Virus record (IMG/VR): IMGVR_UViG_3300006226_001721
Coordinates: 10,314-74,313 of that record
Source: a virus
Length of the DNA stretch: 64,000 nt
Direction: 5' to 3' (one strand)
Below the pieces are notes generated by a model. That model was not told where the DNA came from and made no database searches. It saw only the letters and a list, made by a program, of their open reading frames with translations. Positions 6,394-63,560 of this stretch are shown here, one piece after another (position 1 is the first letter of the stretch; the number at the start of each line of letters is the position of its first letter). A program made the translations under genes and the position numbers.

Positions 6394-7053
6394 ATGAGCA
6401 TAATAACAAATTTTGCAAAAATATATGCCGCTAATAAATTAACAGAAAGTTGTTTTGGGGGAGGTGGAGGATGTCACACTAATCGTCCAGAAAGCTGGGA
6501 ACAATATGAAGCTAGAATAAAAGCAGAAAAAGATGCTAGAAAAGCTGAATTAAAAGATTTAAGATCACAATATCCAGGACATTCTGGTACATTAGCTGAA
6601 TTTAGAATAAAAGCAGAAGAAGATATAGAAGAGTGTGAATCTATAAAAGCCGGGAAAGCTCATCCACATTATAGGTCTATGGGATATGTAGTAGATTATT
6701 ATGAAAGAGTCATCAAAATGTTGAACTTAAAACTTAAAAAGTTTAACGATAAAGGTGGCTTATTATTTGAATCTTCGTTGTATACTTTATTTGCTACTAT
6801 TTATAGCAAATCTAGACTTTTAGAAGGTTGTGGTGGTGGCGGGGGCAGTTGTAGTAGTCGTACATCTTTACCAAAACTTACAAAAGCAGAAAGAGAAGCT
6901 GAAAAAGAAAGACACGCTAGAATAAATGCTGAAAGAGAAGCTGAACAAATGGCTTCTTACAAAAGAAATCTTAAAAAAATTCCTCAACTTAAAAAACAGA
7001 TAAAATACCTTTGTGATACATTAAATATTGATGCTAATCTTTATTTACTTTAG
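6394..7053 (+). CDS. Two-repeat hypothetical protein, probable capsid-internal polyprotein
   Basis: Repeated FAxIY...LxE followed by SCFGGGGGC and GCGGGGGSC, each followed by a charged helical segment. Confidence 0.5.
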   Translation: MSIITNFAKIYAANKLTESCFGGGGGCHTNRPESWEQYEARIKAEKDARKAELKDLRSQYPGHSGTLAEFRIKAEEDIEECESIKAGKAHPHYRSMGYVVDYYERVIKMLNLKLKKFNDKGGLLFESSLYTLFATIYSKSRLLEGCGGGGGSCSSRTSLPKLTKAEREAEKERHARINAEREAEQMASYKRNLKKIPQLKKQIKYLCDTLNIDANLYLL

Positions 7054-7164
7054 TCCGTTTACTCTGAAATTCTGAAAAGGCTAAATTTACCTTTAAAAAG
7101 ATAAGAAAATCTTAGTAAACAGTTGATTACTATAAGAAGTAGTTAACTCTATTAACTAAATAAT

Positions 7165-10921: not shown

Positions 10922-11329
10922 TTAGGGTGCGCTATTCCTAACTTGTGGTCTAGGGTGCTTTGGATAGTCTTTGGTTTCTTCATCTGTTAGTGTTCTAAAT
11001 CCTTGTCCTAAAGCTTGCTCTAACCAATACGATGTGTTTCTATAGTACTTCTTAATGACATCTAACACTGGTCCAGTTTGGGCTTTATGTTTCCACAAGA
11101 ACTTTTTGAGAATGATAACCGGTTCATTATCACCAAACATAACAAAGCTATCTTTTGACTTACTAACTACGTCTTCGATTTCCTGTTTAAGATCACCAAT
11201 AAAGTCCCACACTTCATATTGTAAGTCCATGTCTTCTGGATCACCGCCAATAGCCTTAATCATCTCTTGACATACTGCTCTAGGTGGTGCCTCTTTTCCT
11301 TCTTTTAGAATCTGAGTGAATGACTTCAT
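10922..11329 (-). CDS. Probable capsid-internal protein
   Basis: N-terminus MKSFTQILKE|G resembles the T4 capsid targeting sequence MKTYQEFIAE. Confidence 0.45.
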   Translation of the reverse strand: MKSFTQILKEGKEAPPRAVCQEMIKAIGGDPEDMDLQYEVWDFIGDLKQEIEDVVSKSKDSFVMFGDNEPVIILKKFLWKHKAQTGPVLDVIKKYYRNTSYWLEQALGQGFRTLTDEETKDYPKHPRPQVRNSAP

Positions 11330-36292: not shown

Positions 36293-37705
36293 TTATACAG
36301 TCAATCCAACTGCGTGGTTGACAAGTTTCTTCTTATCTGTTGTTCCATCCAACTGCATATTGAAAGCTACATCCAACCGTTTCTTAAAGTCCGGGCCAGG
36401 TTTCAACCCCTCAGCTATCAAATGAACTCCAGTCACTATTGGCTCTGGCAGTACTTGACCAAACTGTTTCACCAAGTCAGTCACACACTTATCAAAGTCT
36501 ATCATATCTTTCGTATTAGGTACACCATTCGATGCAGCAGTTCCCAAAGTATCACAAGCAGACAAGTTGAACAGTAAGTGAAAGTCTTTGCTTCCCAACA
36601 GTCGCCGTATCTTATGTACTTTCTTCATTTTCGGCAAATCATGAGCATTCATGTGCCGGCGAACTAAAGAAGCAACTCGATCAACTATCTCAGAAGGGAA
36701 CCGCATCCTCACTAGTATCTCTCTAGTCAGATCAGCACCAACTGTATCGTGATTTAGAAAGCGGCTACTACCATCAGTTTTCTTCTCACGGCAAAAAGGC
36801 TTTCCAATATCATGCAACAAAGCGGCCAACATTAGAACCAACTTCTCATTGTCATCTGCCAACGGAGCATCGAACTTACCAACTTGTCCACCACAAACTA
36901 CATCATTTGCTGCTTGAAATACGAACATAACATGGGCTAATATCGTATTGCCGAAAGGCTTCATTGTCTCAGTGTGCCAAGAGTTGTTGTGTGCCTCGTG
37001 CAGTCTTGCGGTCTCAGGAATTAGCATCTGCATTATGTTCAACTCAAACATGAGCTTAACTGTTTCAAATGCAGAAGGACCAATTAGCAACTTACTCAGC
37101 TCAGCAGTGATCCGCTCCTGACTCACACCAGAAAAGCTGCAGCCATTTAGCACGAACTTCTCAATGGCCTTCATTGCTGCCTTGTCTAAAGTGAAGCTCA
37201 GTTGACTCATGAAGCGAAAAGCACGTAAGATCCGCAACTTGTCTTCGGTGATTCTGTCTATTGGGTTACCAACAAAACAGATCTCCTTATCATGAATGTC
37301 AAGAGTTCCAGCAAATGGATCTCTCATTATCTCCTTAATAGGATCCCAAGCCATCGCATTCATTGTGAAGTCGCGCCGTGCTAAATCTATCTCAATGTCA
37401 CGGACAATCTCTATACCATCCGGCCTGCGACCATTTCCGCCAATATCTTTTCTATACTGGGCGATCTCATAAGGAATGCCATTCACAACAACGGCTGTTA
37501 TTCCAAAAGCCTCACCAATTTCTAACACCTGAAAATCTGCAAAGATGCGCTTAATGTCAGCAGGTGATGCATTGCTTGTCAAGTCAATATCGTGAGGTTC
37601 TTTACCCATTTGAAAGTCTCTGACTGCTCCACCTACTACATAGCACTCAAAGCCATTAGAGTTCAGACGGCTAGCAATCAGATTAACGTTTGCATTTTTC
37701 TTCAT
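36293..37705 (-). CDS. cca: CCA-adding tRNA nucleotidyltransferase with HD domain
   Basis: VGGAVRD, DIDL, DLARRDFTMNAMA, EDKLRILRAFRF, ERITAEL, HDIGKP. Confidence 0.88.
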   Translation of the reverse strand: MKKNANVNLIASRLNSNGFECYVVGGAVRDFQMGKEPHDIDLTSNASPADIKRIFADFQVLEIGEAFGITAVVVNGIPYEIAQYRKDIGGNGRRPDGIEIVRDIEIDLARRDFTMNAMAWDPIKEIMRDPFAGTLDIHDKEICFVGNPIDRITEDKLRILRAFRFMSQLSFTLDKAAMKAIEKFVLNGCSFSGVSQERITAELSKLLIGPSAFETVKLMFELNIMQMLIPETARLHEAHNNSWHTETMKPFGNTILAHVMFVFQAANDVVCGGQVGKFDAPLADDNEKLVLMLAALLHDIGKPFCREKKTDGSSRFLNHDTVGADLTREILVRMRFPSEIVDRVASLVRRHMNAHDLPKMKKVHKIRRLLGSKDFHLLFNLSACDTLGTAASNGVPNTKDMIDFDKCVTDLVKQFGQVLPEPIVTGVHLIAEGLKPGPDFKKRLDVAFNMQLDGTTDKKKLVNHAVGLTV

Positions 37706-55759: not shown

Positions 55760-55766
55760 AAAAATG

Positions 55767-55848
55767 CACCGGTCCGCGGGCTTAGCACCCACGGTCCGGC
55801 GTCTTAAACTATTTTGACGTACATAGTTCATGACGCTATGCAACCGGT
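55767..55848 (-). ncRNA. Degenerate tRNA-like element
   Basis: ACCGGT/ACCGGT acceptor, ATAG/CTAT D stem, extended T stem CCGTGGG/CCCGCGG, 12-nt anticodon loop. Confidence 0.4.
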
Positions 55849-55849
55849 T

Positions 55850-56515
55850 TCTATCCCGTCGGATCTTTTCCAGGATAACCTTCAACCTGCTGGCTGCCAA
55901 ACTATGGGCATTTAAAGCGGTACCTCTACCAGAATTTCTACTAATTTGAAGCTGCAGCAATTACCCGCACTTATGACCTTTTGAGTCCACTTCTTATTTC
56001 CACCACTTAGTATGCCGCAATTCGGCGGGTGCGGCTCACATTCACTTTTAGACCAACGAACGTGAAAGTCATGGATATACAGACGAACGACCATCTGCTG
56101 TTAGTCCTTCTGCCCTCCGGCGAACCAACTCCCAAACTGACGTCTCTACTCGTCCAACATTTGGGTATTTTCTACTAACAATAAAGTTCAAGGCTTAACC
56201 GATTCGCGGTACCACCTTTTACTTCACTATCAATAACGGTCAATAAAAGCCGCGCTTACTTAATATACCGCCAACGCGTGGGTCACGGTCAGGATTACAC
56301 TTCCGTCATATCTTGGTGGTCCAGCGACCTGTTGGTAACTCTACACCTAATGTCACATCCTAATAAGTTCTACCAAGTGGCTCGTACCAATAGAGCTCTT
56401 CTTGCAGCCGTAAGCTTGAATTAAGTCCCTGATCCAGATACTCACCACCTCCAGCGGCCTGTTGGCAACTCTCAGCTTGTTATATCCGCTAGCAGGAGCG
56501 GCTCTCGGTTTCCCT
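55850..56515 (-). ncRNA. Candidate large structured ncRNA (or cluster of them)
   Basis: No credible ORF, GC-richer, starts at the early promoter, 22-nt repeat at 56321-56342 and 56451-56472. Confidence 0.4.
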
Positions 56516-56517
56516 TA

Positions 56518-56554
56518 CATATATCATATAAGATTAGATCTTATATCGTTCAAA
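56518..56554 (-). promoter_or_regulatory. Sigma70-like early promoter, copy 3
   Basis: Same 37-nt layout as 5436-5472. Confidence 0.7.
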
Positions 56555-56661
56555 ATACTATGCTGGCAAGAGGTCTTGCACCATTCAACTATCTTTACGC
56601 TCGAGCCGTAGATAAGTCTTCGCCCCTTCGTTTCGTCTCCACTACTCCGCCGGCTTCCAGC

Positions 56662-56847
56662 TTATATGTACTCCGTCAGATCTTCTTCTAACGGCGTAAT
56701 TGCTATTCCATACTTCTTTTTGAGACGATATCCCTCTTCTAGAATGCCGTCTTCTAAACCATGATTGTAACCATTAGCATAACCTATCTTCATAGAAAAG
56801 ACAGCTACCAAGATAAGTCCAACTAATAGCAAACTATACGCTATCAT
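56662..56847 (-). CDS. Small membrane protein
   Basis: N-terminal TM helix. Confidence 0.5.
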   Translation of the reverse strand: MIAYSLLLVGLILVAVFSMKIGYANGYNHGLEDGILEEGYRLKKKYGIAITPLEEDLTEYI

Positions 56848-57017
56848 CGGCTAACTTGTCTATGGCTTTACGTATGGCTGATGCCATGTTGTGGACATCA
56901 TTTGTAGTTTCACATTGATTGAAAAGCTCTGTCATTCGTTTAGTCAGTTGATGTAGAGCATTAAAGATGATTGTTGGCTTGTTTTCTTCCATAATGATAT
57001 ATTAACATTAGTATAAG

Positions 57018-57138
57018 TCCGCCAGACAGGGTTTGCACCTGTACGATGGTCTAGCCATCAGCAGGCTATACTCACCAGCCCTCCGGCCTTAAGGTTACAT
57101 ATAGTTCCCGCCGCGTCTCCTATTTTCGCCACTGACGA
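57018..57138 (-). ncRNA. tRNA-Leu-type scaffold with a 41-nt anticodon loop
   Basis: Leu-type D arm TGGCGAAAATAGGAGACGC, stem GCGGG/CCTGC, long variable arm, T arm ACAGG-TGCAAAC-CCTGT, A73. Confidence 0.65.
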
Positions 57139-57213
57139 CAGAGCCGCCGCGATTTGAACGCGGAATTACCTGATTTGGAGTCAGGAGGCTTAGCCAATTA
57201 AACCGACGGCTCT
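57139..57213 (-). tRNA. tRNA-Trp(CCA)
   Basis: Cloverleaf; loop CT-CCA-AA; G73. Confidence 0.9.
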
Positions 57214-58647: not shown

Positions 58648-58718
58648 TACTCGATAAAGGATTTGCACCTCTGCGAAAACGGTGTAAACGTTCCATGCTC
58701 CTGTTACATCAATCGAGC
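58648..58718 (-). tRNA. tRNA-Val(TAC)
   Basis: Cloverleaf; loop TT-TAC-AC. Confidence 0.88.
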
Positions 58719-58755
58719 ATATACCAGATAAGGGACTTGCACCCTATACTCTTTT

Positions 58756-58829
58756 TACACGGGGTGAGATTCGAACTCACACTACTAAGGGCCTAAACCT
58801 TATGACTCCTTCCGTTGGTCTACCCGTGC
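58756..58829 (-). tRNA. tRNA-Leu(TAG) with a short variable loop
   Basis: Cloverleaf; loop TT-TAG-GC; 5-nt variable region. Confidence 0.8.
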
Positions 58830-59453
58830 ATTATATAGTAATTTTTTGGACTCATTATATCTCCAAAAATCACAATTTAATTTTTCTATAATAATATTTT
58901 GTCTTATTATATCTTTTTCTTTTAATTCACCATTTATATAATGTTTTGGTTCATCATATTCAAAAACTATGTTTAATTTAGCATCATACCCATCTAAAAA
59001 ATAACCACAAAATGTAAATTCACCACCATTTAAAGCATGTTGTAAATTCCAATTTTTTTCTTTATTAAGTTTATCAATAAAATCACAAGCTTTTTTATTA
59101 AAATTAGCTCCTCTATTTTTACCTGTAAGTTTTAATCTTTCAATAAATATTAGTCTTAATTTCTCTTTAGTTTCTTTTGATAAATTTTTATTTAACCAAT
59201 AATGACCACTTTTATTTGGATTTTTTTCACATAATTTTTCATGTAAAGAATTTCCACTATTAGTTGTTATTTTTATTCTTTTACACCACTTACATTGCCT
59301 TTTTATTTTTTCATCTCTATTACTAGAATAATTCATTTGATGACCTTCAATTCTTTTATGGTCTAAACATTCCTCCTTTGTTCTAAAAGTTTGGTTACAT
59401 ATTCTACATAACCAATTATTTTTTGAATTTCTATATTGTCTTTTTCTTTCCAT
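58800..59453 (-). mobile_element. Free-standing homing-endonuclease-like gene (C2H2 zinc finger plus Vsr/DUF559-like nuclease)
   Basis: CRIC...H...H, CKWC, LDGYD...FEYDEPKHY...KDIIRQ; very AT-rich; own ACTAATTA promoter. Confidence 0.6.
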
Positions 59454-59615
59454 AATAATTAGTACACATACTTAAATTAACTAGCACGTGTACTAATTCC
59501 GCCAATCTGGCTAAAACGGATATAGCATAAGATTCCTACTATACCCAATGGATAGCAATTCGCTGCAGCAATTCTATCCGTGGTAAGTTTCAGGCCTAGA
59601 ACTTACAAACCGGCC

Positions 59616-59958: not shown

Positions 59959-60033
59959 AGTCCCAGGAGGGAATCGAACCCTCTAAACATCTGCTTTGCA
60001 GGCAGTGCGCCAGGCCACTAACGAATCCGAGAC
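59959..60033 (-). tRNA. tRNA-Cys(GCA)
   Basis: Loop CT-GCA-AA; U73. Confidence 0.85.
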
Positions 60034-62772: not shown

Positions 62773-62888
62773 GGCAATATGGTAGGATTTGAACCTACGA
62801 CCACTGGATTAACATTCCTGATAGTAATTGCGGTAAAAGCCGTTACACGGCTCACTTTTAAGCGCTCTACCACTGAGCTACATATTGC
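62773..62888 (-). ncRNA. tRNA-like RNA (GTT, Asn-type anticodon arm) with a 42-nt insert after position 26
   Basis: 8-bp acceptor GCAATATG/CATATTGC, canonical D and T arms, CAGGA-ATGTTAA-TCCAG arm, insert 62821-62862. Confidence 0.6.
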
Positions 62889-63450: not shown

Positions 63451-63560
63451 TCGCGGGGAGTTGGAATCGAACCAACTGGGAGGCACAGAGACTTGCGCAA
63501 GTTTACCCTCCGACCCAAAGAAACGGAGCAACGGCTCATTGTTGTTCCCATTCTTCCGCG
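63451..63560 (-). ncRNA. tRNA-like RNA with an 8-nt acceptor strand and long variable arm
   Basis: Perfect T arm GTTGG-TTCGATT-CCAAC, CGCGG/CCGCG acceptor, CTCCG/CGGAG stem with an 11-nt loop. Confidence 0.45.

Follow-up and report, generated by a model that had tools for sequence, protein, structure and literature searches.

In the tRNA arrays of phages, genes are usually taken for decoders and the oversized ones for introns or pseudogenes. The 'enigmatic' tRNA introns of Lak megaphages, found in oversized genes of a jumbo-phage tRNA set, place extra sequence in the anticodon region that is conserved between phages, and they have been defined by alleles with and without the insert at near-identical sequence (Devoto et al., bioRxiv 10.1101/356790). 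The species 1 and 2 RNAs of T4 (rnaC and rnaD) are stable non-tRNA RNAs of 119-139 nt that are co-transcribed in a phage tRNA cluster. The YrlA Y RNAs of bacteria and phages combine a tRNA-like D/T elbow with a long protein-binding stem; they are circularly permuted, have a closed acceptor, end in the protein-binding stem and carry the motif GNCGAAN(0-1)G, and location within 4 kb of a Ro60-like gene has served as a criterion for them (PMC4201824). In engineered tRNA scaffolds, according to the account of the work of Ponchon and Dardel in PMC3401473, an intact tRNA body carries a structured RNA where its anticodon loop would be, and such RNAs are processed and protected in E. coli. Moreover, CsrA binds GGA in hairpin loops, as in the CsrA site ACACAGGAGGGU of Leptospira biflexa flaB3 (PMC8668096).

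Here we describe a phage RNA gene that resembles the tRNA-shaped non-coding RNAs of phage clusters (T4 species 1 and 2, and YrlA in concept), and that, by the tests applied here, is a member of none of these groups, nor of the intron-containing tRNAs. Besides decoders on the one hand and introns or pseudogenes on the other, its family represents a third case. The gene lies in the window, by which we mean the whole stretch of 64,000 nucleotides analysed here, part of a 94-kb virus record (CheckV 29%, partial) that has the same gene set as a 173.8-kb contig. Minus-strand genes for tRNAs, a tmRNA and a short RNase P-like RNA form an array at 53.8-64 kb of the window, and a Leu-type tRNA with a 41-nt loop is confirmed within it. 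The features of the locus are as follows.

57018-57138, minus strand: the whole tRNA-Leu-derived RNA gene; 121 nt from U1 to A73, CCA not encoded
57132-57138, minus strand: acceptor stem, 5' strand; pairs with 57025-57019 (7 bp, with G-U at 1:72 and 4:69)
57113-57129, minus strand: Leu-type D arm; 3-bp stem and 11-nt loop, with A14, A15, A18 G19, G21 A22
57107-57111, minus strand: anticodon stem, 5' strand; pairs with 57065-57061 (5 bp, GCGGG/CCUGC)
57066-57106, minus strand: replacement of the anticodon loop; 41 nt, drawn from pair probabilities and covariation
57104-57099 with 57071-57066, minus strand: helix P2; 6 bp, the last pair U-G
57095-57093 with 57076-57074, minus strand: helix P3; ACC/GGU
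57092-57089, minus strand: 5' bulge UUAA; 4 nt, between P3 and P4
57077-57088, minus strand: terminal hairpin P4; GGAG tetraloop at 57084-57081, invariant in three copies
57043-57060, minus strand: long variable arm in Leu-type orientation; one unpaired G before U48 (U44..G47j U48)
57026-57042, minus strand: T arm; loop UGCAAAC, G55
57018-57025, minus strand: acceptor 3' strand and discriminator A73
57139-57213, minus strand: tRNA-Trp(CCA), immediately upstream of the RNA gene, zero spacer
56834-56992, minus strand: 52-aa ORF directly downstream of the RNA gene; function not assigned

The original prediction had reported an intact Leu-type scaffold, a 41-nt anticodon loop and no spacer after tRNA-Trp, and these parts of it stand, whereas the hidden TAA anticodon that it also proposed does not (see below). 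A full cloverleaf parse of minus strand 57138-57018 was obtained, with exactly 41 nt (57106-57066) inside the 5-bp stem, and the end of tRNA-Trp falls at 57139. Outside the arms, U8 G9 are present, and G26 precedes the anticodon stem. A covariance model of the window copy and one orthologue scored tRNA-Leu genes highest among ordinary tRNAs, at 33-43 bits. Those tRNAs of this phage (window 53830-63225) that have G55 in the T loop carry AG in place of GG in the D loop; A18/G55 of the element is the same swap, so that its elbow obeys the rule of the working tRNAs of the phage. The element was not detected by ARAGORN at default settings and has no Rfam match, and the 52-aa ORF matches no Pfam family at cut-off. 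The ARAGORN default also misses a tRNA-Val(UAC), a tRNA-Cys(GCA) and a tRNA-Met (window 58648-58718 and 59960-60033, minus strand; genome C1 79008-79079).

Compared with class II tRNA-Leu (RF00005; for instance the Leu(UAA) of the relatives L287 and G001), the element shares the 7-bp acceptor, U8 G9, the 3-bp D stem, the Leu-type D loop, the long variable arm in which a single unpaired G precedes U48, and A73. In place of the 7-nt loop, however, its family has a structured arm of 41-45 nt (41 in the window, 45 in one orthologue, L289, and 43 in another, L107), and an anticodon loop with U33 and purine 37 is absent. The element differs from the Lak introns in that a canonical loop is not regained by any single excision, that the three loci showed no allele free of the insert (the normal Leu(UAA) genes of relatives sit elsewhere), and that structure rather than sequence is conserved. 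With T4 rnaC and rnaD no similarity in sequence or fold was seen, and these have no GGAG arm. Unlike YrlA, the element has ordinary tRNA ends and a closed anticodon end, and it lacks both GNCGAAN(0-1)G and an Rfam match; a DUF2828/DUF7788 gene lies about 3.2 kb from it. In contrast to the engineered scaffolds, as far as they are described in PMC3401473, it is natural and phage-encoded, with a putative cargo.

The arm inside the anticodon stem of the window copy is predicted to form three helices with pair probabilities of 0.96-1.0, where a purine-rich GUA/GA internal loop separates P2 from P3. The CTATA/TATAG pairing noticed at the outset agrees with this fold (probability 0.97-1.0). The CCGG/CTGG and CCTTAAGG hairpins suggested along with it are not part of the predicted fold, reaching -10.1 kcal/mol against -19.8 kcal/mol for the GGAG fold; in the RNA, CCGG/CUGG and CCUUAAGG have a predicted pair probability of about 0. 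The folding z-score is only -1.9 for the whole RNA and -3.0 for the arm alone. The pair that closes P4 is C-G, C-G and A-U in the three copies, and GGAG became the terminal loop in 6, 11 and 6 per 2000 loop shuffles (0.3-0.6%). Since the motif had been set from the window and L107 copies before L289 was discovered, the GGAG loop of L289 was a genuine prediction that came true. On the other hand, GGAG is also the core of the Shine-Dalgarno sequence, and GGAG-capped hairpins are only mildly enriched in the arrays (6.5-9.8% of GGAG sites, compared with 4.8% in the rest of the genome). A free-standing hairpin, GCUG-GGAG-CAG(C/U), recurs in non-coding parts of the arrays (genome C1 79453 and 74992, minus strand; L105 7135; L112 355). 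A second pattern match in the genome of this phage, at 63505-63526, was rejected as unrelated to the element, its GGAGG being paired.

Absence from relatives had been named as an argument against the original prediction; we found two divergent orthologues, at L289:484-606 and L107:13483-13588. They were reached via neighbouring proteins, after DNA searches had given none. L107 (and also G002) has a homologue of the 52-aa ORF and, immediately 5' of it, a tRNA-shaped gene whose anticodon stem encloses 43 nt. A profile search with the 52-aa ORF led to the third locus, L289. Here the order of the window is repeated, with tRNA-Trp, a Leu-type gene (45 nt in the stem) and the small ORF homologue. 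The spacer between tRNA-Trp and the L289 copy is about 15 nt, and no tRNA-Trp stands before the L107 copy. Two more homologues of the small ORF, P0144 (with a 125-nt gap before it) and P0146, lie outside this three-locus comparison.

In each orthologue, 31 of 31 compared pairs are kept, a count that is biased towards the fold because only three sequences were aligned, by hand, to its prediction. Two-sided changes number 10 in L289 and 15 in L107, several of them within P2 and P4, and all seven acceptor pairs are formed in the three copies with different sequences. Invariant are U8 G9, the GAGA that ends the D loop, the U-G pair topping P2, the CC/GG of P3, GGAG and A73. The arm architecture and GGAG are fixed while the scaffold sequence with its stems, the bulge (4, 7 and 5 nt in the window, L289 and L107), the T loop and the variable arm drift. 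This variable arm measures 18, 18 and 4 nt, with compensatory changes in L289 and a reduction to 4 nt in L107. The elbow covaries, with A18/G55 in the window and G18/U55 in L289, and with A-U, A-U and G-C at 15:48. L289 has A54 in place of U54, and L107 is without G18G19 and without the long arm; for the L107 arm, alternative folds compete (z -0.7 to -1.0).

Run unfiltered, a model of the window and L289 copies finds the full length of the L107 copy, its GGAG in register, at 20.4 bits (E 1e-4 in 2.8 kb). The filtered search overlooked the L107-type copy present in G002, and its negatives are therefore weak. BLAST of the three copies against 50,697 phage records gave merely short chance matches. 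DNA pattern scans of IMG/VR and metagenome contigs yielded no new members among the loci returned, and chance matches dominated two of the scans. A description of the family was not found in Rfam, in phage records or in the literature, of which few subscription papers were covered. The family of three members seems to be new and rare. As a complete relative is without the element, it is not essential to this phage group.

The hidden TAA anticodon is unsupported, given that the UUAA bulge reads GUUUGAA and GCUAC in the orthologues and that two separate cuts would be required. We consider it unlikely that the gene is an intron-containing tRNA-Leu(UAA), similar to those of Lak phages, that is spliced into a normal UUA decoder. 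The Leu scaffold would suit such a gene, a loop of CU UAA GG could be accepted, no Leu codon is used more often in the genome than UUA (780 of 1784), and short intron-like inserts are known in these phages and in Lak phages (10.1101/356790). However, this loop needs two excisions, of 13 and 21 nt. When all single excisions leaving an arm of 17 nt were enumerated in the three copies, no U33 appeared in the window or L107, and L289 gave an Asp anticodon on a mismatched stem with 4 of 5 pairs, while other insert-bearing tRNAs of these phages, used as controls, regained their loops. Neither the UAA triplet nor, in L107, the long variable arm is conserved; the stem has no canonical bulge-helix-bulge, its bulge being 2 nt on the 5' side; and RtcB and the archaeal-type endonuclease (PF01974) were not found in three records. 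Rnl1/Rnl2-type RNA ligases are encoded by relatives, so that ligation capacity is no obstacle to splicing. A normal tRNA-Leu(UAA) was said to be missing from the window, and indeed none was found there or in the 94-kb record; the gene was not found in the two element-bearing records and is present in two element-free relatives. Both element-bearing records are incomplete, however, and the Leu UAA and Gln UUG genes of relatives lie far from the array. With a partial record, and with the Leu(UAA) of the complete relative about 190 kb from its array, the missing gene is weak, merely suggestive evidence. The pattern may reflect descent of the element from the Leu(UAA) gene. tRNA-Gln(UUG) was likewise not found in the record, and relatives keep it outside the array. 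Splicing to an amber suppressor, with an AA CUA AG loop that would read UAG as Leu, is hardly credible. One single excision does leave CUA at 34-36 and a purine at 37, but A33 takes the place of U33, and single excision does not reproduce CUA in either orthologue. Moreover, TAG serves as a normal stop codon, used by 15 of 62 long ORFs, TAG read-through raises coding cover by only about 3 points, as does TGA read-through, and an alternative genetic code was ruled out, the code being standard.

That the tRNA body is the working part, being leucylated or just bound, either to donate an amino acid outside translation or to serve as decoy for a tRNA-binding defence nuclease, with the arm only sealing its anticodon end, is possible and should be taken more seriously than splicing, even though we hold it to be the less likely function. 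[quoted passage not shown] A short-arm tRNA-Leu can be charged by a LeuRS (PMC6614811), and phage tRNAs countering tRNA-targeting defences are outlined in bioRxiv 10.1101/2023.03.15.532788. On the other hand, the window copy has a U4-G69 wobble, and wobble at 4:69 cut leucylation in Aquifex about 40-fold (C69U, 0.026; PMC2377443). Together with A54 of L289 and with the loss of G18G19 and the long arm in L107, this argues against efficient charging of the three copies, and if the arm were just a seal, there would be no need to conserve its three helices and an invariant loop. Decay of a tRNA-Leu gene into a pseudogene, with an insertion by chance, is very improbable and already largely refuted. 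The three G-U pairs across the acceptor and anticodon stems, the modest z-score of the whole RNA and the complete relative without the element would fit decay, but none of the compared pairs (0 of 31) is broken despite the strong sequence divergence of the orthologues, the elbow covaries, and the GGAG loop is common to the three copies beyond chance.

The evidence leans, if not heavily, towards a selected RNA that derives from a tRNA-Leu gene, stays unspliced and does not decode, in which the body would serve processing and a putative host or phage protein would bind the arm. Conservation is stronger in the arm than in the tRNA identity elements, and for this reason we read the arm as the working end, with the body serving as a scaffold for processing and stability. 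If the array is expressed, RNase P cutting at U1 would free both the 5' end of the RNA and the 3' end of tRNA-Trp. Trimming of the 3' end and then a CCA-adding enzyme may follow, both acting through the tRNA body (acceptor, D/T elbow and A73), which would keep the RNA stable after its excision from the phage tRNA transcript. The phage encodes a CCA-adding-type enzyme (PF01743/PF12627) at 36293-37705, plus the RNase P-like RNA. The RNA would remain unspliced in the cell and, having no anticodon loop, would not decode; its rigid three-helix arm would present the GGAG hairpin, most likely as a protein-binding site.

Host CsrA is a candidate partner of the arm. CsrA is a translational repressor, with control of flagellin in spirochaetes. 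The element resembles CsrA/RsmA hairpins in exposing GGA in a hairpin loop (PMC8668096). The tips GC-CGGAGG-GC, GC-CGGAGG-GU and GU-AGGAGU-GC are similar to AC-AGGAGG-GU of L. biflexa flaB3, which is bound by CsrA (PMC8668096). Yet each RNA has one GGA hairpin and not many, as a CsrA/RsmA-sequestering sRNA would; C and not a purine precedes GGA in two of three copies, and the full RUACARGGAUGU consensus is unmatched (PMC8668096). We regard it as doubtful that the arm titrates CsrA as a natural tRNA-scaffolded aptamer, alongside the FliG/FliM that relatives carry in their arrays. csrA itself was not found in the three phage records. Should the arm bind a host regulator, the trick of the tRNA scaffold would already be natural, and many oversized 'tRNAs' of jumbo phages would become candidate regulatory RNAs.

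The host is probably a gut spirochaete. The best named homologue of the DUF2828 protein is from Treponema, and a related contig lies within a termite-derived MAG. The JGI source samples are presumably termite guts. From these points and from FliG/FliM we infer the spirochaete host. A DUF2828 search in IMG/VR and a search with a 97-aa ORF returned no homologues. FliG and FliM, proteins of the flagellar switch, or a hybrid histidine kinase are encoded inside the tRNA array of relatives (L105 1-2038; L107 6658-9552).

Further candidates for the element were rejected. Likenesses to SRP domain IV, a T-box stem I and a kink-turn were dropped, since not every copy keeps their required motifs and Rfam gives no match. 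The intron mode of ARAGORN called an Ile(UAU) whose intron would be 34 nt long, but only at a lowered threshold where it makes 197 calls, most of them false. Group I introns in tRNA-Leu(UAA) have a catalytic core of at least about 200 nt and are inserted after U34. In the element the extra sequence is 34 nt, and no Rfam intron matches it.

The excision test separates likely introns from mimics inside one genome. A tRNA-Asn-like gene at about 7627-7730 of L287 has a 28-nt hairpin insert after anticodon position 34, and its excision gives CU GUU AA. A tRNA-like family at window 62773-62888 (minus strand), about 5183-5305 of L107 and about 6338-6452 of L112 carries an insert of 41-46 nt that separates positions 28 and 29. 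Once it is excised, all five pairs of the anticodon stem (5/5) form again in the three phages, with compensatory CU/AG and GG/CC as well as GGA/UCC versus GCA/UGC, and the loop that is left reads AU GUU AA (Asn) or AU UUU AA (Lys). The insert of this family is a promising candidate for a genuine non-canonical intron or for a fifth arm.

More tRNA-shaped genes with enlarged or rebuilt anticodon arms, the inner fold of which is different in each, were seen at L107 14222-14327, at about 13008-13093 of L287, and at 6962-7106 and about 5785-5855 of L105. The tRNA-Leu(UAG) at window 58718-59511 (minus strand) is split by a 217-aa ORF and a nested short-arm tRNA(UAG); in L107 it is intact (11011-11093) and shares 27 identical 3' bases with the window. 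Short-arm tRNA(UAG) genes also occur in L105 and L287. About 900 nt at window 55760-56660 are mostly non-coding and contain blocks that are 89-94% identical in L107 (14069-14209 and 15178-15254), far above the identity of the neighbouring proteins, with no convincing Rfam match. Directly after the tmRNA, a structured RNA with a T arm is found at window 63451-63560 (minus strand) and L107 4990-5097, where GGAGG/CCUCC covaries with GGUGG/CCACC.
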